Source of the DNA: an uncultured Bacilli bacterium
GTDB taxonomy: Bacteria; Bacillota_I; Bacilli_A; RF39; UBA660
Direction of reading: 5' to 3'
Length of the DNA: 64,000 nucleotides
NCBI GenBank assembly: GCA_934168275.1
Contig: CAKPNA010000001.1
Span: forward strand, 132,009 to 196,008
Part shown: positions 367-61,816 of the stretch, piece by piece
How the letters are laid out: the number at the start of each line of letters is the position of its first letter
Numbering within the stretch: position 1 is the first letter of the stretch
Program-made: the position numbers and the translations under genes
The notes under the pieces: model-generated
What the model was told of the DNA's origin: nothing
What the model saw: only the letters and a program-made list of their open reading frames with translations
Databases searched by the model: none

Positions 367-1362
367 TTATTGCCTCTCTACTCTTACTATTCTATAAAAT
401 AACTTCTTCTTACCTACATTACTAAGTAATAAATTAAAATATATTCTATTCTTTAAAGTTAATTCAGGATAATATTTTAATATATATTTCTTATATGGTA
501 TTAATAAATCAATAAGTTCTAAATATTTAGGTGCATACTTAATCTTTGTCTCTTTTGAACCTGTTTGATTTAAAAACAATAAAACATTTCGATACTGAAA
601 GAATACTCTAGCATATATTACTTTATTATATTCTATCTTAATTTGACTCAAAACACTCTCTAACACAATCTTATGATCTTCAAATACCTTTTCTTTAGTA
701 TCAGTCATACTATTTCCTGGTCTATCTACTAAATAATAAGATAAAGCATCTTCAATATACATAACTCTCTTGGCATTACATAATGCTAATAAGTATAACA
801 AATAATCTGTAAAACTAACTTTCTTAGGAAACTTTATATTTTTACATATCTCAGTTCTATATAATTTAGAATGTGGACTAGGTTGTAAAAAATAAAACTC
901 ATCAGTTATTTCATAAACCATATTAGGTACACACTTACATCCATCAAACTTAGAATTATCATATACTTCTTCACTATTATCATTATAAACTAAATATTTA
1001 GAACCTACTACTATATCTAAATTATCAGTAGTAGCCTTCTTATATAATACTTCAATAGCATCCTCTTTTAACCAATCATCAGGATCACATATTAAAAAGT
1101 ATGGTGTAGTTATATTCTTAATAGCATACTCTAACACTGACCCATAACCACCATTTTCTTTTTCAATACATTTAACTCTAGAATCTTTTTTAGCATACTC
1201 TTTCATAATACTAACACTATTATCCGGACTACCATCACTAATTGCCCATATTTCAATATCTTTAAACGTTTGACTAACTAAACTATCTAGACACTTTCTT
1301 AAATATTCTTCCACATTATAAATAGGTACAATAATACTTACCTTTGCATCACTTTTACTCAT
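367..1362 (-). CDS. family 2 glycosyltransferase
   Basis: Translation has VSIIVPIYNVEEYL...DGSPDNS...ICDPDDWL, the GT2 (DxD) signature, over 331 aa. Confidence 0.8.
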   Translation of the reverse strand: MSKSDAKVSIIVPIYNVEEYLRKCLDSLVSQTFKDIEIWAISDGSPDNSVSIMKEYAKKDSRVKCIEKENGGYGSVLEYAIKNITTPYFLICDPDDWLKEDAIEVLYKKATTDNLDIVVGSKYLVYNDNSEEVYDNSKFDGCKCVPNMVYEITDEFYFLQPSPHSKLYRTEICKNIKFPKKVSFTDYLLYLLALCNAKRVMYIEDALSYYLVDRPGNSMTDTKEKVFEDHKIVLESVLSQIKIEYNKVIYARVFFQYRNVLLFLNQTGSKETKIKYAPKYLELIDLLIPYKKYILKYYPELTLKNRIYFNLLLSNVGKKKLFYRIVRVERQ

Positions 1363-1445
1363 TAAATCTTCCTTTCAACTTATAGTATTTCTATAAATAA
1401 TTATAACATATTAACTTTCATTTACAAATATAAATACCATACTTT

Positions 1446-1474
1446 ACTAAAAAACCTCTAGAAAATTCTAGAAG
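1446..1474 (-). terminator. intrinsic terminator downstream of secreted-protein paralog A
   Basis: Palindrome cctctagaa-aa-ttctagaag (1455-1474). On the minus strand it is followed by UUUUUUAG (plus-strand A-run 1447-1454). Confidence 0.45.
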
Positions 1475-1522
1475 TTTAATAGATTTTTATAAATATTAAA
1501 TATTAACAAATATATCTATAAA

Positions 1523-3349
1523 TCAATTTACAATAAAAGGTGAACTTGAAGTCCCATTGCCACTGGATAATACTGTGCCTTTTTTTAAGGATATTGTAGG
1601 TCTAACGTCTAACAAACTAGTGACATAGTTGCTGCTGAAATCCCCAGAAGAACGCAAGGTGAACTCGTTAGCAGCCCAGACGCTGAAGTGAGACGGAGAA
1701 AAGGACCAATTATGTACTCCATTGTATAGGTAATATGATGTATTTGTCTGCCATAGAACCGCTCCAGCATATGCCATTTCTTCCGCTGTTATCATACCAA
1801 CTGGATATGTCAACTTACCATTGCCATTATCCGCACTAACTGAAAATTTATCTAATTGTCTTGGACATACTAAACTAAGTTTTCTATTATATAATCTTTG
1901 CATACTACCAAAATTTAACCACTTATCATAATTACTATAATTATTATTCCAGCCACTAGTATTAAAATTATAATATGTTCGGTCATTACAAAAACCAGTA
2001 TCTTCTAATTTTGATGTATAACTAGTCATATTAGTTTTATACCAAGCGTCTATTTTAACTTTAGCATTTGATTCTTTAACATTAATGTTTCCTTCAAACA
2101 TATCATTTAATAAATCTTTTGGTTTCTTACCATTTGTTAAAGTAAAATAGTAAGCATTTTTATTTTCATTATATATAAAATGAATATAATATACACTTTG
2201 ACATGTTGTACTTGAACTAAAACAAGTATAATGATATTTATCAGTATAATTACTATATTCTGTATTCCAATTGCTTGGGTTTGTTAACGTTTTTGTATCT
2301 TTTAAAGTATATTTTCCTGTGCTAGCATCATATGTTGCATCATTACCAAATACAATATTTCCACTTAGCGTTGTAATATCCTTACTACTAGCAGTATGAG
2401 CAGTATTATACATGTATCCTACATAGGCTGGTGAGTTTGGACTTGTATTAAATTGAATATTACCTATTGTTGTATCCACACCAGTATTATTACATTGTCC
2501 ATTAGAAGGTTTACCATCATATATTAATTTAACCCCACCAGTTTCGGTTGTTCTTACTATTCGCCAACAAAAGTTAGCGAATAAGACATGATTATTATCT
2601 ACTGCTCCCCTGTAGTAATATACAGGGACATTATTTTCAGTATTAGTTGTTGTATATATACCTTTTGTCCCATCATCACTAGATTGTTTACTAAAATCTA
2701 TTTTAGTATATTTATCGGCACTACTCTTTATCTTATAGAATAAAGTATTTGTTCCGTTCCCATCATCATAACCATAATCTATTGGTAGATTAGGATTATT
2801 ACTTGATGTTCCTTTCATATTAACTGATATACTTCCACTTAAATTTTGGGTTTCTGTTTCATCTAGCCAAATATATAAGTAATATGTTTTTGTATAATTA
2901 TTACCTGATTTAGTTATATTATCATAGTCATTTTTAATTAGCCAAACATCATTACCAACTGTTTTATTTTTAAAACTGCCACTTGATACAATATCCTCAG
3001 TACAACTACTAGCATTAGTAGTAAGTGTATATCGCATTGACTCTCTTTTTAAGCTATCCGATAGTGTGGCAATATTCATGCCTATACTAAATGATACTTT
3101 ACCACCTGAAGTATTATTGGAGGTTGCCACAATTTTCTTCTTAATAGCATATTCACTAGTACACTTAGATGGCATGAATGAAGTATTAGTATTGCCTCCT
3201 CCATCAATAGTCATTGTCAAATTACCTGCTCTAATTTGGGTAATATTAGTGGCTACTGCACTTGTTGTATAATAAGCAAATGTTCCTCCAATACCTAGCA
3301 TTACTATTGATAAAATAGTTAAAATAATAAATAATCTCTTTCTTTCCAT
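1523..3349 (-). CDS. large secreted Asn/Thr/Gly/Tyr-rich protein with TasA/camelysin-type (SipW-cognate) signal peptide; paralog A of a multigene family
   Basis: 608 aa ORF. The N-terminus MERKRLFIILTILSIVMLGIGGTFAYYTTSAVATNITQIRAGNLTMT matches the GGTFAYFSD...NTFAAGTLDLTL pattern of TasA/CalY SipW-dependent signal peptides. The first ~92 codons are identical to the ORF at 59963..61531. The C-terminal segment is locally GC-rich (..DVRPTISL..PFIVN). Confidence 0.75.
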   Translation of the reverse strand: MERKRLFIILTILSIVMLGIGGTFAYYTTSAVATNITQIRAGNLTMTIDGGGNTNTSFMPSKCTSEYAIKKKIVATSNNTSGGKVSFSIGMNIATLSDSLKRESMRYTLTTNASSCTEDIVSSGSFKNKTVGNDVWLIKNDYDNITKSGNNYTKTYYLYIWLDETETQNLSGSISVNMKGTSSNNPNLPIDYGYDDGNGTNTLFYKIKSSADKYTKIDFSKQSSDDGTKGIYTTTNTENNVPVYYYRGAVDNNHVLFANFCWRIVRTTETGGVKLIYDGKPSNGQCNNTGVDTTIGNIQFNTSPNSPAYVGYMYNTAHTASSKDITTLSGNIVFGNDATYDASTGKYTLKDTKTLTNPSNWNTEYSNYTDKYHYTCFSSSTTCQSVYYIHFIYNENKNAYYFTLTNGKKPKDLLNDMFEGNINVKESNAKVKIDAWYKTNMTSYTSKLEDTGFCNDRTYYNFNTSGWNNNYSNYDKWLNFGSMQRLYNRKLSLVCPRQLDKFSVSADNGNGKLTYPVGMITAEEMAYAGAVLWQTNTSYYLYNGVHNWSFSPSHFSVWAANEFTLRSSGDFSSNYVTSLLDVRPTISLKKGTVLSSGNGTSSSPFIVN

Positions 3350-3371
3350 AAATGTACAATCCCTTTCTTAG

Positions 3372-3427
3372 TAAATAAAAAACTACGATAAAAAGAGTCT
3401 AATCGCTTAAACTCTCTTTACCGTAGT
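3372..3427 (-). terminator. strong intrinsic terminator/attenuator hairpin immediately upstream of the paralog A start codon
   Basis: On the mRNA: ACUACGGUAAAGAGAGU-(12 nt loop)-ACUCUUUUUAUCGUAGU, a 17 bp stem with 2 GU pairs, followed by UUUUUUAUUU. The stem ends about 45 nt before the ATG at 3349 and the U-tract ends about 22 nt before it, just ahead of the AAAGGGA Shine-Dalgarno. Plus-strand arms are 3382-3398 and 3411-3427. Confidence 0.6.
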
Positions 3428-3459
3428 TATTATATTATTTAAACAAACATGTGTATTAT

Positions 3460-3516
3460 TTAGCCCCCCCCCCCCGGTAAACTTGGAGTTAACTTTTTAT
3501 TAACTTTATTATCCAT
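3460..3516 (-). CDS. putative leader peptide ORF (18 aa, MDNKVNKKLTPSLPGGGG) containing the poly-G tract
   Basis: AAAGGAG Shine-Dalgarno (3532..3526) sits 9 nt upstream of the ATG at 3516..3514. The frame runs through 12 G and hits TAA at 3462..3460. With 13 G the frame would continue and stop at a UAA inside the loop of the downstream terminator. Confidence 0.4.
   Translation of the reverse strand: MDNKVNKKLTPSLPGGGG
3464..3475 (-). repeat. homopolymeric tract of 12 C on the plus strand (12 G on the coding strand); candidate slipped-strand phase-variation site
   Basis: Direct count of 12 consecutive C in a roughly 27% GC genome. The tract lies inside the leader ORF, 115-126 nt upstream of the paralog A ATG. 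Confidence 0.95.
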
Positions 3517-3580
3517 AATTATTAGCTCCTTTCTACTTAGGAAGAAATACTTTGTTTGTTTATTTTCTTACCTTAAATTA

Positions 3581-3609
3581 ATTCTAGCACAAAACTCATC
3601 TCTATGCAA
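3581..3609 (-). promoter_or_regulatory. sigma-A-like promoter (TTGCAT-17-TAGAAT) for the leader/paralog A unit
   Basis: Minus strand reads gtcTTGCATagagatgagttttgtgcTAGAATtaatttaagg. The -10 hexamer is at the aligned position of a TATAAT in the second locus. Confidence 0.45.
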
Positions 3610-3642
3610 GACCAAAAATTACATAAATATTTTAAACTATAA

Positions 3643-6092: not shown

Positions 6093-8279
6093 CTATTTTT
6101 TATAACAATAATTATCATTTATTTTAGTATATCCACTTAAACAAGTATAAGTTGTTACAAGAGCACGACAACTAAGATTATTATTATATAGTTCTTCTCC
6201 AGCATCACACCAACGATTATCCTTACACGATGAATAATTTACACTACCCTGTGATACACAGGAAGCTCCCCAACCTGTACATCGACATGACGTTACCCTA
6301 CCAGTATTTGTTATACAACCACAAGAACCAGTTATATTTGAGTGTGATGTACCTCTATCTTCATATGTAGAACTTTTCTGAGTTGCCACAATAATAATCG
6401 AACAGCTACTAGGATTACCTGCTGTATCTTTTACATAATATGTATGCGTTCCAACTGCAATACTCTTACTAGTACTATTACTTCCGGAATATGAACTACT
6501 CCATCCTTGATAAGCTATTCCTTTATCATCACTAGCTGTTGCTGTTATATTACTAGCATCAGCACTTAATGTACATGTTGGTGATGTTGTATCATTAGCC
6601 TTCCATATAGCATACAAAGTTGTTGATTCATTAGCTGTATACTTAGAACCCGGCTGATAACTAGTTCCACTACCATCAATACTAGTATTCCAACTAACAA
6701 AAGCATAACCTGTTCTCGTTGGCTTAGTACTAGATAAAGTTAAATCAACTGTATTATATTTATCTTGACTTGTCGGAGCACCACTACCACCATTAGCATT
6801 ATAATTAACTGTTATAACATTAGATATATAACCTATAATATTAATAACTGAACTATTACCAACATTATCATAAGCAATTACTTGGATATATCTTTGCCCT
6901 GTATCAGATATAGTTAAATTACTATTATTACTCACTATATTATTACTAACAATATTAGTATTTAATTGATTATATATACCACTACTATTTTGTAATATCC
7001 TAATCTCTTTTATATTGCTCATACTATCACTAGCATTATACTTAATATTAAAACTATTATAAGACCAATTCTTATCATCTATCGAAATACTAGTATTAGT
7101 ACTCTTCTCTATCTTATTACCAATTAAACTACCTAAACAATTATCTTTATTAGAGCACCTCTGTTCAATAACATTAATAGTAGGAGCTGTTCTATCAATA
7201 TAAATACTAACATCTATCTTACTACTATTTCCTGCTTCATCAGTTGCTACAATAGTAGCTTTTCTATTACCATCACCAGATAATGTCTTAGAGCAAGAAT
7301 TATTACAATTGGCACCACTATTACTAGGACTGCCTCCATTAATACTACCTTCATTATTATAAGTCCATTTAATCGCACTATTTTCATTAGTACTAATATC
7401 AAACCAATATCCATAATTTTTCCATTCATTAATTATATAATTACTATTAATAGTAGTAATAAGTTCTCCTTTAGTTTTTGGATTATTTCCCTCATAACTA
7501 CCAATCTTATAAACATTTAAACTAATAGCTGGAGGAATATTATCTATAAAATCAATATTCTTAGTAGCATCTGCTACATTCTCTCCATTAATATTAACAA
7601 AAGCCGATATTACACCATTAGATTTAATATTTAACCTAACTACATCACTACTTGCTAAATACCAACGTCCTGACTCTAAACTACTAACTGCATTATTACT
7701 ACAATTACCAATACCTTCACAAGAATAAACTACATCATTAGTAGTAACCGTATTTTCATCAAATTCTGATATATAAAAATATCTATAATAATTATCATTT
7801 AAACCATTATATAATATCTTCGTATTTGTTGTTTTTACTTTCTTACCTTTATTATCCGTAGATATTGATATACTAGATTGATAACCACAATCTACATCCG
7901 GTAAAATACTATCTTCAAAAGAAAAACTAGTCTCTTTTATAACTTTACTATCTTTATCTCTGACTACTTTTAACATAGTATCCTTTGATAATTTATCATT
8001 CTTATTAATAGTATTCTCATCAAAATAACCTATCTCTATCATATTACCTAATGATATACAACTATATTCATAATTATCTTTAACATTCCAATAACTAGAT
8101 ACTTCATCAGTATATATTTTCGATATATCTTTAATATTATTATAAGTAATTAACTCAGCATTATCTTTTGCCTTATTAATGTTTTTCATTACTATATATA
8201 CTGTAACACTTAAAACTACTCCAAGTATAACTACTGTACTTAATAACTCCACTAATGTAAAACCATTTTTCTTTCTCAT
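6093..8279 (-). CDS. prepilin-type N-terminal cleavage/methylation domain protein (large pseudopilin-like) with Listeria-Bacteroides repeat (Flg_new-like) domain and Cys-rich C-terminus
   Basis: The N-terminus MRKKNGFTLVELLSTVVILGVVL is a class III signal peptide (G|FTLVE). Residues ..GYAFVSWNTSIDGSGTSYQPGSKYTANESTTLYAIW match the Flg_new repeat. The last ~80 aa contain 14 Cys. Confidence 0.7.
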   Translation of the reverse strand: MRKKNGFTLVELLSTVVILGVVLSVTVYIVMKNINKAKDNAELITYNNIKDISKIYTDEVSSYWNVKDNYEYSCISLGNMIEIGYFDENTINKNDKLSKDTMLKVVRDKDSKVIKETSFSFEDSILPDVDCGYQSSISISTDNKGKKVKTTNTKILYNGLNDNYYRYFYISEFDENTVTTNDVVYSCEGIGNCSNNAVSSLESGRWYLASSDVVRLNIKSNGVISAFVNINGENVADATKNIDFIDNIPPAISLNVYKIGSYEGNNPKTKGELITTINSNYIINEWKNYGYWFDISTNENSAIKWTYNNEGSINGGSPSNSGANCNNSCSKTLSGDGNRKATIVATDEAGNSSKIDVSIYIDRTAPTINVIEQRCSNKDNCLGSLIGNKIEKSTNTSISIDDKNWSYNSFNIKYNASDSMSNIKEIRILQNSSGIYNQLNTNIVSNNIVSNNSNLTISDTGQRYIQVIAYDNVGNSSVINIIGYISNVITVNYNANGGSGAPTSQDKYNTVDLTLSSTKPTRTGYAFVSWNTSIDGSGTSYQPGSKYTANESTTLYAIWKANDTTSPTCTLSADASNITATASDDKGIAYQGWSSSYSGSNSTSKSIAVGTHTYYVKDTAGNPSSCSIIIVATQKSSTYEDRGTSHSNITGSCGCITNTGRVTSCRCTGWGASCVSQGSVNYSSCKDNRWCDAGEELYNNNLSCRALVTTYTCLSGYTKINDNYCYKK

Positions 8280-59962: not shown

Positions 59963-61531
59963 CTATCCAATCACGAACGGATCTGCAGCAGTCCCTGATC
60001 CTCCTCCTGTCATCCCTATCCCCGGTTGAAGTGAAACGGACGGACGCACCCCACGAGGGGTATTGACGGTGCTGGAGTGCAAGTGCCCACCAGAGCTCAA
60101 GCCGAACTCGTCAGCAAACGGGTAGAGGAAGTCAAACGGAGACAAAGCCCAATAAGATTTTCCTGTATATAAGTAAAATGAACCATTTGCATCAGATGAA
60201 CTACTATAATATTTTCCTCCGGCATATACCATTTCATCAGCAGTTATTAATCCAACTGGATATGTTAATGCACCATTACCATTACTTGTATTTACTGTAA
60301 ACTTATCATTATCTTGAGCACATTTTAATGTTGGTGTTGGATTTGATACCTTAGGTCCTACTCTAGATGTTGGACCATATACTGTTTTATTTGTTCCATA
60401 TCCTAATGTTGTATAACTACTATAATTCCCACCATTTGAATTTGCTAAATCTGTTACTATACTTCTATCATTACACCATACTGTATCTTCTAATTGTAAT
60501 GTATAACTTGTCATATTATTTTCATACCATGTATCTATTACTCCCTTTATTGTTGAATCATTTGTATTGGCATGAGTACTTGCGTATGTACTTGATTCAG
60601 TAGTTCCAAACATATATCCTACATATGCATTATCATCACGAGTTGAATTAAATGCTGAACTACCTATTGTAGAATTATTACCTGTATTATTACATTGACC
60701 ATTAGATGGTACTCCATCATAGATAAGTTTTACTCCACCTGTCTCGGTAGTTCTTACTATTCGCCAACAGAAATTAGCAAATATTACACGATTATCTACA
60801 TTACCTCGATAGTAATATACCGGATTACCACTATCGGTATTAGTAATCATAAATATACCATTAGTATTATCTTGTACTGATGTTTTACTAAAATCAATAG
60901 TAGTTGTTGTATCAGCATTATTTTTTATATAATCATATAAAGGAATAGTTTTTACTGCTTCTGTTGTTAAATTAGGATTATTACTAGATGTTCCTTTCAT
61001 ATTAACTGATATACTACCTGATAGATTTTGAGTTTCTTTTTCATCTAACCATATATAGAGATAATATGTTTTGGTATAAGTATTACTTGTATTAGTAATA
61101 TTATCATAGTCATTCTTTACTATCCATATATCACTACCTACTGTGGCATTACTAAAATTACCATTTGCAATTAAACCATCAGTACAACTATTCTCAGATG
61201 TTGTTAAAGCATATTTCATTGTAGTAGTCTTTAAACTATCCGATAATGTTGCTACATTCATACCTATACTAAATGATACTTTACCACCTGAAGTATTATT
61301 GGAGGTTGCCACAATTTTCTTCTTAATAGCATATTCACTAGTACACTTAGATGGCATGAATGAAGTATTAGTATTGCCTCCTCCATCAATAGTCATTGTC
61401 AAATTACCTGCTCTAATTTGGGTAATATTAGTGGCTACTGCACTTGTTGTATAATAAGCAAATGTTCCTCCAATACCTAGCATTACTATTGATAAAATAG
61501 TTAAAATAATAAATAATCTCTTTCTTTCCAT
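59963..61531 (-). CDS. large secreted Asn/Thr/Gly/Tyr-rich protein with SipW-cognate (TasA-type) signal peptide; paralog B
   Basis: 522 aa. The first ~92 aa are identical to paralog A, then diverged but homologous (..VYYYRG.VDN.V.FANFCWRIVRTTETGGVKLIYDG.PSNGQCNNTG..). GC-rich C-terminus ..GVRPSVSLQPGIGMTGGGSGTAADPFVIG. Confidence 0.75.
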   Translation of the reverse strand: MERKRLFIILTILSIVMLGIGGTFAYYTTSAVATNITQIRAGNLTMTIDGGGNTNTSFMPSKCTSEYAIKKKIVATSNNTSGGKVSFSIGMNVATLSDSLKTTTMKYALTTSENSCTDGLIANGNFSNATVGSDIWIVKNDYDNITNTSNTYTKTYYLYIWLDEKETQNLSGSISVNMKGTSSNNPNLTTEAVKTIPLYDYIKNNADTTTTIDFSKTSVQDNTNGIFMITNTDSGNPVYYYRGNVDNRVIFANFCWRIVRTTETGGVKLIYDGVPSNGQCNNTGNNSTIGSSAFNSTRDDNAYVGYMFGTTESSTYASTHANTNDSTIKGVIDTWYENNMTSYTLQLEDTVWCNDRSIVTDLANSNGGNYSSYTTLGYGTNKTVYGPTSRVGPKVSNPTPTLKCAQDNDKFTVNTSNGNGALTYPVGLITADEMVYAGGKYYSSSSDANGSFYLYTGKSYWALSPFDFLYPFADEFGLSSGGHLHSSTVNTPRGVRPSVSLQPGIGMTGGGSGTAADPFVIG

Positions 61532-61553: not shown

Positions 61554-61609
61554 TAAATAAAAAACTACGATAAAAAGAGTCTAATCTCTTAAACTCTCTA
61601 TATCGTAGT
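61554..61609 (-). terminator. intrinsic terminator/attenuator hairpin upstream of paralog B; copy of the 3372-3427 element
   Basis: Arms at 61564-61580 and 61593-61609, followed by a U-tract on the mRNA. Nearly identical to the locus A hairpin. Confidence 0.6.
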
Positions 61610-61700
61610 TATCTTTATTTTTATTTAACAAACAGTTGTTATTATTTGCCCCCCCCCCAAGTAAACTTAGAGTTAACATATTATTATAATTCTTTTTCAT
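61581..61700 (-). CDS. putative leader peptide ORF (39 aa) containing the poly-G tract and terminating inside the terminator loop
   Basis: AAAGGAG Shine-Dalgarno 9 nt upstream of the ATG at 61700. MKKNYNNMLTLSLLGGGANNNNCLLNKNKDNYDIESLRD, with the UAG at 61583..61581 as the last 3 nt of the hairpin loop. Confidence 0.4.
   Translation of the reverse strand: MKKNYNNMLTLSLLGGGANNNNCLLNKNKDNYDIESLRD
61649..61658 (-). repeat. homopolymeric tract of 10 C on the plus strand (10 G on the coding strand) inside the leader ORF
   Basis: Direct count. Confidence 0.95.
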
Positions 61701-61787
61701 AAATTTTAACTCCTTTCTAGTAAACGTTCGTTTGCTATAACCTTTACTCGGAAGAAATATGTTTGTTTATTTTCTTACCTTAAATTA

Positions 61788-61816
61788 ATTATATAACAAT
61801 TTAGATTTATATACAA
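61788..61816 (-). promoter_or_regulatory. sigma-A-like promoter (TTGTAT-17-TATAAT)
   Basis: Minus strand reads TTGTATataaatctaaattgttaTATAATtaatttaagg. The -10 hexamer aligns with the TAGAAT of locus A. Confidence 0.45.

Follow-up and report, generated by a model that had tools for sequence, protein, structure and literature searches.

Organisation of locus A

A run of twelve G residues is located in the leader of a gene for a predicted secreted protein on contig CAKPNA010000001.1, as part of a cassette that is the subject of this study. The window, i.e., the whole stretch of 64,000 nucleotides (nt) analyzed here, supplies all coordinates and holds two copies of the cassette, at locus A and locus B, both on the minus strand. 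At a GC content of 26.4%, the window contains only two G/C runs longer than six, of 12 and 10 nt, and both are located within the homologous cassettes. Because these two are the sole long runs, a chance origin of the G12 tract, deemed very unlikely in an earlier note on this DNA, is excluded. The features of locus A are given below, in nt, base pairs (bp) and amino acids (aa).

3581..3609, minus strand: promoter, TTGCAT (3609-3604), 17-nt spacer and TAGAAT (3586-3581); TGC ahead of TAGAAT makes an extended -10
3535..3580, minus strand: 5' untranslated region (5'UTR) of the family, TAATTTAAGGTAAGAAAATAAACAAACAAAGTATTTCTTCCTAAGT, common to cassette-less paralogues
3526..3534, minus strand: Shine-Dalgarno (SD) sequence of the leader, AGAAAGGAG, 9 nt ahead of the leader ATG
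3460..3516, minus strand: leader open reading frame (ORF) in the G12 (predicted OFF) frame, MDNKVNKKLTPSLPGGGG, ATG 3516-3514, 18 codons, stop TAA 3462-3460
3477..3493, minus strand: invariant nucleotide block GTTAACTCCAAGTTTAC, complementary to the leader SD region
3464..3475, minus strand: G12 tract, the putative slippage-prone switch; leader frame open at G13 or G10
3455..3463, minus strand: CTAAATAAT, directly after the tract, with TAA stops in two of three frames
3407..3454, minus strand: extension read in the ON frame only, ending with TAA 3409-3407 at the hairpin apex; includes the near-invariant TGTTTGTTT (3449-3441)
3381..3428, minus strand: terminator hairpin, 22 bp, loop GCGA, from folding, terminator scan and comparative pairing
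3373..3382, minus strand: U-tract TTTTTTATTT, directly after the hairpin
3361..3369, minus strand: second SD, AAGAAAGGG, for the main gene, whose ATG is at 3349
1523..3349, minus strand: regulated gene A, 608 aa, secreted protein with a weak SipW-type signal peptide and an N-terminal beta-sandwich, without a Pfam family

The -35 hexamer matches the consensus in three of six positions, and TTGCAT-17-TAGAAT was therefore missed by a simple promoter scan. The pattern TTGYAY-17-TAKAMT is nevertheless positionally conserved across loci with diverged spacers, cassette-less loci included. The hairpin was called by the terminator scan and folds with -27.9 kcal/mol (z = -8.5), a stability equaled by none of 200 shuffled sequences. 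Between the two, the length of the G tract determines where the leader ends. With twelve G the leader stops at TAA 3462-3460, right after the tract, and with eleven it stops at the second TAA of CTAAATAAT; with thirteen it stays open as far as TAA 3409-3407 in the apex of the hairpin.

The earlier note had read most of this from the letters alone. Its promoter, its strong ribosome-binding site and 18-codon leader with 12 G, the SD and ATG of the main gene behind the terminator, and the stops assigned to 11, 12 and 13 G are all found in place. It also described a hairpin of 17 bp followed by a U-tract; both elements exist, while the length has to be corrected to the 22 bp given by folding.

A second copy at locus B

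The G10 run of the window belongs to a paralogous copy of the whole locus A arrangement.

61788..61816, minus strand: locus B promoter, TTGTAT, 17-nt spacer, TATAAT
61581..61700, minus strand: locus B leader ORF in the open (predicted ON) frame, 39 aa, stop TAG in the apex of the hairpin
61649..61658, minus strand: locus B G10 homopolymer tract
61563..61610, minus strand: locus B terminator hairpin, -28.5 kcal/mol (z about -8.5), with a U-tract behind it
59963..61531, minus strand: regulated gene B, 522 aa, paralogue of A, with residues 1-95 the same as in A and mosaic beyond

Both loci are 100% identical over residues 1-95 of the protein and from the hairpin to the main ATG, followed by blocks at 69% and 40% identity. 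This pattern indicates gene conversion or a mosaic evolution of the family.

An insert of about 25 nt is found just 5' of the leader SD at locus B (window ~61722-61745, minus strand) and likewise in the 5'UTRs of L002, L028-L032 and L054. It contains a small palindrome whose arms vary by locus with complementarity kept (AAACG..CGTTT, AAACAT/ATGTTT, TAAGCA..TGCTTA), and may serve as an operator or form a small stem-loop.

Distribution and consensus of the cassette

For the comparative analysis, 45 cassette instances representing 30 alleles were collected from gut metagenomes and from three species-level metagenome-assembled genomes (MAGs). A scan of species-representative genomes with the internal pattern of the cassette returned eight copies in these three MAGs, three to four in each of two of them; the MAGs carry the names "uncultured Bacilli bacterium" and "Bacillales (NCBI: Caryophanales) bacterium UBA6414". 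A scan of metagenomes that made no assumption about the tract returned 33 matches, eight of which are real cassettes and the remainder chance.

The consensus begins with an SD, 9 nt and an ATG, a spacing kept in nearly all leaders examined, and continues with about seven variable codons, the invariant GTTAACTCYAAGTTTAC and the G tract, which ranges from 7 to 12 nt across cassettes. The 3' part is composed of C(T)AAATAAT, ACAYTTGTTTGTT, an AT-rich spacer, the 22-bp hairpin, the U-tract, the second SD and the main ATG.

The paralogues at the P0075 locus (L016-L025), whose layout was read over about 110 nt upstream of the gene start, share the promoter and 5'UTR but lack leader ORF, tract and hairpin, with AGAAAGGA leading straight into the main ATG. 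Because these cassette-less paralogues use the same upstream promoter, the cassette acts after initiation. They are presumably constitutive, to judge from this layout, and the cassette looks like an insertion between duplicated SD sequences, or its absence like a deletion between them.

Upstream of the leader SD, L033, L059, L070-L072 and L080 carry TTGTACATTTTAATTYGCAA, in one or two direct copies, instead of part of the usual 5'UTR. A regulator may bind there, or the copies may provide an alternative promoter.

Frame logic of the leader

Between the ATG and the tract, not a single in-frame stop occurs in 18 distinct leaders, compared with 53 and 44 when the leaders are read in either of the other frames; the variable leader parts, when shuffled, stay open in about 35-47% of cases each. 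Judged by these counts, the leader is a maintained ORF.

Behind the tract, exactly one frame is open to the hairpin apex in 26 of the 30 alleles, two frames are open in four alleles, and no allele is without an open frame, in good agreement with the one-in-three logic that the note had derived from locus A. Stops of the open frame are located at +3, +7 or +11 from the apex start, or past the hairpin, and a few alleles use TGA. Stops of the closed frames range from -26 to -57 nt relative to the same point. All 24 distinct spacers, which fall into 11 length classes, retain an open frame, at a probability of about 0.43 each in shuffled sequence; counting one spacer per length class, the shuffle control gives P ~4e-5 for this retention.

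By the frame rule, 34 of the 45 instances are OFF and 11 ON, near the expected one in three. This ratio fits a repertoire in which only few paralogues would be expressed at a time. Three tracts are interrupted (GGAGAAGGGG in L044 and L059, GGGTGGGGGG in L057), and all three are in the open frame. Thus, selection on the frame encoded in the DNA is implied.

Some closed frames (L037, L067/L069, L075-L077 and others, with stops at -26 to -30) end only 10-14 nt before the base of the hairpin. Together with the four alleles with two open frames, they suggest that some cassettes may have three expression levels rather than two.

Tract polymorphism and conservation of the hairpin

As the note had expected of a slippage hotspot, the tract varies in length, namely between samples and with identical flanks, in five of the seven alleles seen more than once. 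At locus A it measures 12 nt in the window and 11 nt in the 99%-identical orthologue L001, both lengths being OFF by the rule for this locus. The locus B tract has 10 nt in the window and in L005, and 11 nt, an OFF length, in L004. Lengths of 10 and 11 nt were found at the P0118 locus; at the P0120 locus the tract has 9 nt in one sample and 10 nt in seven, with 11 nt in the near-identical allele L009, and the tracts of L070-72 have 8, 8 and 9 nt. Identical alleles occur at both ON and OFF lengths in separate samples, assembled with two different assemblers.

Four contigs (L005, L046, L078 and L081) end at the G tract or a few bases from it. Such breaks are as expected if tract length is heterogeneous within the sample, or if coverage drops over poly-G.

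In the alignment of the hairpins, 95% of the cells are paired, compared with 36-53% after sliding of the partner column. Compensatory double changes are seen in three pairs, and four others vary only by G-U-compatible transitions, as expected for an RNA of the minus strand. These patterns point to constraint on the hairpin at the level of RNA.

A probable phase-variable attenuator of transcription

These findings are best accounted for by a slipped-strand phase-variable transcription attenuator of a surface-protein gene, in line with the note; to this reading of the G12 leader region we assign a probability of roughly three in four. Its predictions at the level of sequence are all borne out by the comparison. 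Transcription would start at the upstream promoter and a ribosome at the leader ORF, where the length of the tract modulo 3 sets the frame read downstream. In two frames the ribosome would meet a TAA within one or two codons, in CTAAATAAT, about 30 nt or more 5' of the hairpin, such that hairpin and U-tract would form and terminate transcription ahead of the main gene (OFF). In the third frame, translation would continue for about 17-20 further codons to a TAA or TAG at the apex (TGA in a few alleles), and the ribosome would cover the 5' arm. With this arm occupied, the terminator would be blocked and RNA polymerase would enter the surface-protein gene (ON). Slippage of the G tract during replication would toggle each paralogue independently, heritably and reversibly. 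Layout, conservation, frame logic, covariation of the hairpin and differing tract lengths are read directly from the sequences, while termination, read-through by way of the ribosome and the rate of switching within a population are inferred. By this model locus A, with G12, is predicted to be OFF, as the note had supposed, and locus B, with G10, to be ON.

Several observations weigh against this reading or limit its reach. A derived lineage (L002, L003 and L006-L015, studied over the upstream 150 nt; in the following the L002/L006 lineage) and the locked L044 lack both the outer arm of the hairpin and the U-tract next to it. A local hairpin (GUGCAGUCUU/AAGGCGUGUAC) sequesters the main SD in the L002/L006 lineage, where the leader, when open, is read across this hairpin and its stop overlaps the main ATG (ATGAATAA); in the locked-ON L044, the leader ends 2 nt before the main ATG. 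Both seem to be translational-coupling forms by their layout, and termination would then not be the sole output of the cassette. In L002 and L003 the leader starts with ATA instead of ATG while the tract is still polymorphic (10 versus 11), which points either to non-AUG initiation or to a decaying switch. Differences in length from assembly to assembly could in part be consensus errors in homopolymers, and all three compensatory changes of the hairpin come from a single lineage. Some Firmicutes couple translation poorly to transcription, and the reach of a ribosome towards a nascent terminator could be limited by this. Finally, the blocks GTTAACTCYAAGTTTAC and TGTTTGTT are not explained by the model.

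Invariant blocks beyond the frame model

The block GTTAACTCYAAGTTTAC (window 3477-3493 and ~61661-61677, minus strand) is invariant in all alleles, as a nucleotide sequence and not as a peptide; in L037 it is read in another phase and the sequence is still kept. Its UUAACUCY matches the leader SD region GGAGUUAA as an exact complement, with 53 of 56 positions pairing and no compensatory changes, and CUCYAAG is able to form a local pairing with the first residues of the G tract. Behind the tract, the near-invariant TGTTTGTT (3441-3449) is complementary to the 5'UTR motif AAACAAAC (~3552-3559), a motif conserved to the same degree in loci that lack the cassette. RNAalifold draws a long-range helix of 10 bp between the 5'UTR and the post-tract region as well as the SD/anti-SD pairing, the support coming from invariant or wobble-compatible positions only.

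Candidates for functional interactions could thus be the anti-SD UUAACUCY, the AAACAAAC-GUUUGUUU helix between 5'UTR and post-tract region, and pyrimidine stretches pairing with the G tract. We consider it conceivable, if rather unlikely, that the cassette goes beyond a binary switch in this way, such that RNA interactions of the invariant blocks would tie tract length to initiation of leader translation or to polymerase pausing and would yield at least three heritable levels, in a portable module spread by gene conversion with both terminator-type and coupling-type outputs.

A known RNA family such as a riboswitch, T-box or leader was considered and rejected: at gathering thresholds, Rfam gave no match in the whole window, and under permissive settings the top match in the leader scored 26.7 bits against a gathering score of 70.

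Alternative explanations

The alternative that survives best accepts the leader switch as such and places its effect mainly in translation or mRNA fate instead of termination. The leader ribosome in the ON frame would unfold the structure and hand over to, or expose, the main start, while OFF RNA would be poorly translated or degraded. The L002/L006 lineage, with its sequestered main SD and a leader stop overlapping the main ATG, and L044 with its leader ending 2 nt before it, speak for this view. Loci A and B and most other alleles speak against it: here the main SD follows about 15-25 nt past the 22-bp hairpin and U-tract and is unpaired in the folds, the stop of the ON frame is located about 60 nt 5' of the main ATG, too far for classical coupling, and the U-tract is conserved. 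As a general account of the cassette, we regard this alternative as unlikely.

A second alternative moves the slippage from DNA to RNA. Long homopolymers are prone to transcriptional slippage, and RNA polymerase slipping, or ribosomes frameshifting, on G10-12 would bring a fixed fraction of events into the open frame, resulting in a graded, non-heritable low expression; differences in tract length would then largely be neutral drift or sequencing error. The excess of OFF frames (34 of 45 instances) would be tolerable if OFF were leaky, and a tract that is hard to sequence could account for the broken contigs. This is hard to reconcile with the recovery of the same alleles at ON and OFF lengths from different samples by two assemblers, and with the interrupted tracts fixed in the open frame. 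We therefore consider RNA-level slippage quite improbable as a replacement for the attenuator model; it is compatible with that model and not exclusive of it, and RNA-level slippage or sequencing error may well contribute.

It is very improbable that the G tract tunes initiation, its variable length setting the spacing within an internal promoter (TTTACY ... AATAAT) or within an activator site (the direct repeat GTTAAC-N5-GTTTAC). The repeat of GTTAAC and GTTTAC, with its 11-bp period, is indeed found just 5' of the tract and AATAAT after it, and the pre-tract block is conserved as nucleotides rather than peptide, as in L037. Yet the spacers implied by the observed tract lengths are 10-16 nt, mostly 13-15, compared with the required ~16-18, and the promoter scan shows no promoter-like pair spanning the tract at locus A or B. 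An internal transcript would still meet the terminator, the promoter used by the cassette-less paralogues is the upstream one, and the maintained ORF, the frame-specific stops and the locked in-frame variants would be left unaccounted for. Promoter-spacer phase variation was rejected on these grounds, i.e., the lack of hexamer pairs across the tract, the short spacers and the upstream position of the promoter.

Hardly credible, finally, is a small ORF that is a functional peptide gene with the hairpin as its own terminator and an independently expressed main gene: some assemblies do annotate ON-frame leaders of 35-49 aa as genes, and the peptide encoded after the tract shows fair conservation, yet this conservation is at the nucleotide level with spacer indels altering the peptide, L037 reads the pre-tract block in another phase, the promoter scan found no promoter in the ~35 nt between U-tract and main ATG, and the cassette-less paralogues put the sole promoter upstream.

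The regulated proteins and their surroundings

Cassettes are always located 5' of members of one protein family, with L033 as the sole exception; its cassette precedes a different protein that likewise bears a SipW-type signal. The family has at least 2,640 relatives, nearly all in human-gut metagenome assemblies. Pfam reports no family in the regulated proteins A and B, and the SipW-type signal (NCBIfam TIGR04088) that marks SipW-dependent, TasA/camelysin-like secreted proteins scores 15.4 and 14.1 bits, below the cut-off of 19. The AlphaFold model of the regulated protein is poor (mean pLDDT 52), with a confident N-terminal beta-sandwich. Searched against the PDB with Foldseek, it gave no match at E <= 0.001 and weak, non-significant resemblances to pilin-like beta-sandwiches (template modelling score, TM, 0.3-0.4), and we do not claim a pilin identity from them. 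On these predictions, our designation of the product goes no further than a putative secreted or surface protein.

Large neighboring genes, at window 6093-8279 (minus strand) and upstream of the family gene in L017-L025, encode weak prepilin-type N_methyl motifs together with Flg_new or Big_13 repeats. Their position suggests that other surface or pseudopilin-like proteins cluster with the family.

On the other side, 3' of gene A, genes for GT2, GT4 and a Polysacc_synt/MurJ-type flippase follow (window 367-1522, minus strand; 4988-7827 in L001). Between gene A and the GT2 gene we found no terminator-like site, and a promoter-like site does lie there; notwithstanding the latter, the switch might reach the glycan locus too.

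Comparison with known systems

The closest precedent is provided by the pil1 and, likewise, the pil3 locus of Streptococcus gallolyticus, where GCAGA repeats in the ORF of a leader peptide are followed by a premature stem-loop terminator (Danne 2014, PLoS Pathog 10:e1003860, PMC3894217). Leaders whose stop is at least 28 nt upstream of the stem-loop give low expression there, and those ending in or next to it give high expression by ribosome-induced destabilisation, as established with mutants of the ribosome-binding site and ATG, triple-stop mutants, terminator deletions and chloramphenicol (PMC3894217). The earlier note had held that, to its knowledge, tract-length variation combined with leader attenuation had no standard annotation category; it does have a precedent, the same logic having been demonstrated experimentally in pil1 and pil3 (PMC3894217).

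The two systems are alike in the position of their leader stops, the short leaders ending well 5' of the hairpin (at least 28 nt there, mostly at least 30 nt here) and the long ones in or next to it. In both, a surface structure of a gut-associated Gram-positive bacterium is concerned and the repeat number varies between isolates. They differ in the repeat itself, 13-22 copies of GCAGA in S. gallolyticus compared with a G homopolymer of 7-12 nt in our cassettes, and in the frame logic, since two of three frames are ON in pil1 and usually one of three here. There is no sequence homology between them, and the target is a sortase pilus operon in the one case and a protein family with SipW-type signal in the other. 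Moreover, a single genome can carry the present cassette at several paralogues, and at least three species-level genomes of uncultured human-gut Bacilli have it, with cassette-less, locked-ON and coupling derivatives. The mechanism is genetically proven in S. gallolyticus and predicted from sequence here.

Attenuators with a simple sequence repeat (SSR) in a leader ORF constitute a class that is defined by mechanism and is not a homologous family. At the sequence level the cassette has all four hallmarks of this class, namely a repeat in a short ORF with SD and ATG, a predicted terminator, a frame-dependent stop, and a variable repeat number. For a fifth, the dependence of downstream transcription on translation of the leader, the closest evidence in our data is natural variation, namely the fixation of interrupted tracts in the open frame. 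Our literature search for precedents of homopolymer or leader-ORF attenuators yielded the S. gallolyticus work only, and neither a homopolymer version nor this lineage. New here are the homopolymer tract, the one-in-three ON logic, the portable multi-paralogue cassette and a derived form that seems to be translationally coupled.

In the classical attenuators where a ribosome physically blocks the terminator, such as Escherichia coli pyrBI and, in a looser sense, the trp operon, a physiological signal (UTP or charged tRNA) provides the input by way of ribosome or polymerase kinetics, in contrast to the heritable DNA frameshift proposed here. The likeness is that translation of the leader into an intrinsic terminator decides on read-through, with no separate antiterminator helix needed, as in pyrBI (see the discussion in PMC3894217).

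Phase variation by repeats in coding regions shares another part of the design. The CTCTT repeats of the Neisseria opa genes and the homopolymeric G/C tracts in genes of Campylobacter, Helicobacter and Neisseria change frame by slipped-strand mispairing, and their paralogues switch independently, resulting in combinatorial surface variation. Frame shifts by slippage in many independently switching paralogues are what the cassette would have in common with this type. In the opa type, however, the repeat is located inside the structural ORF and OFF means a truncated protein from a full-length mRNA, whereas here an upstream ORF of its own holds the repeat, and the predicted consequence of OFF is an aborted transcript.

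The cwpV gene of Clostridioides difficile is also controlled by a heritable DNA change in the 5' leader that decides on an intrinsic terminator ahead of a surface-protein gene. There, the change is a site-specific inversion by a recombinase, with leader ORF and ribosome not involved; the cassette would instead rely on slippage of the tract and on the leader ribosome.

Significance

Ribosome-mediated antitermination driven by a repeat within a leader ORF is documented for only one species so far. The cassette supplies a searchable annotation signature, in which SD and ATG open a short ORF with a homopolymer, followed by stops out of frame, a single open frame and a terminator. Its natural variants (locked-ON, cassette-less and coupling-type) represent a ready mutational series for the model. 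The cassette also flags a large family of secreted proteins of no known function as probable host-, phage- or immune-facing antigens. An unrelated homopolymer version would suggest that Gram-positive gut bacteria have arrived at this design for stochastic variation of their surface repeatedly, and that it is not peculiar to streptococci.

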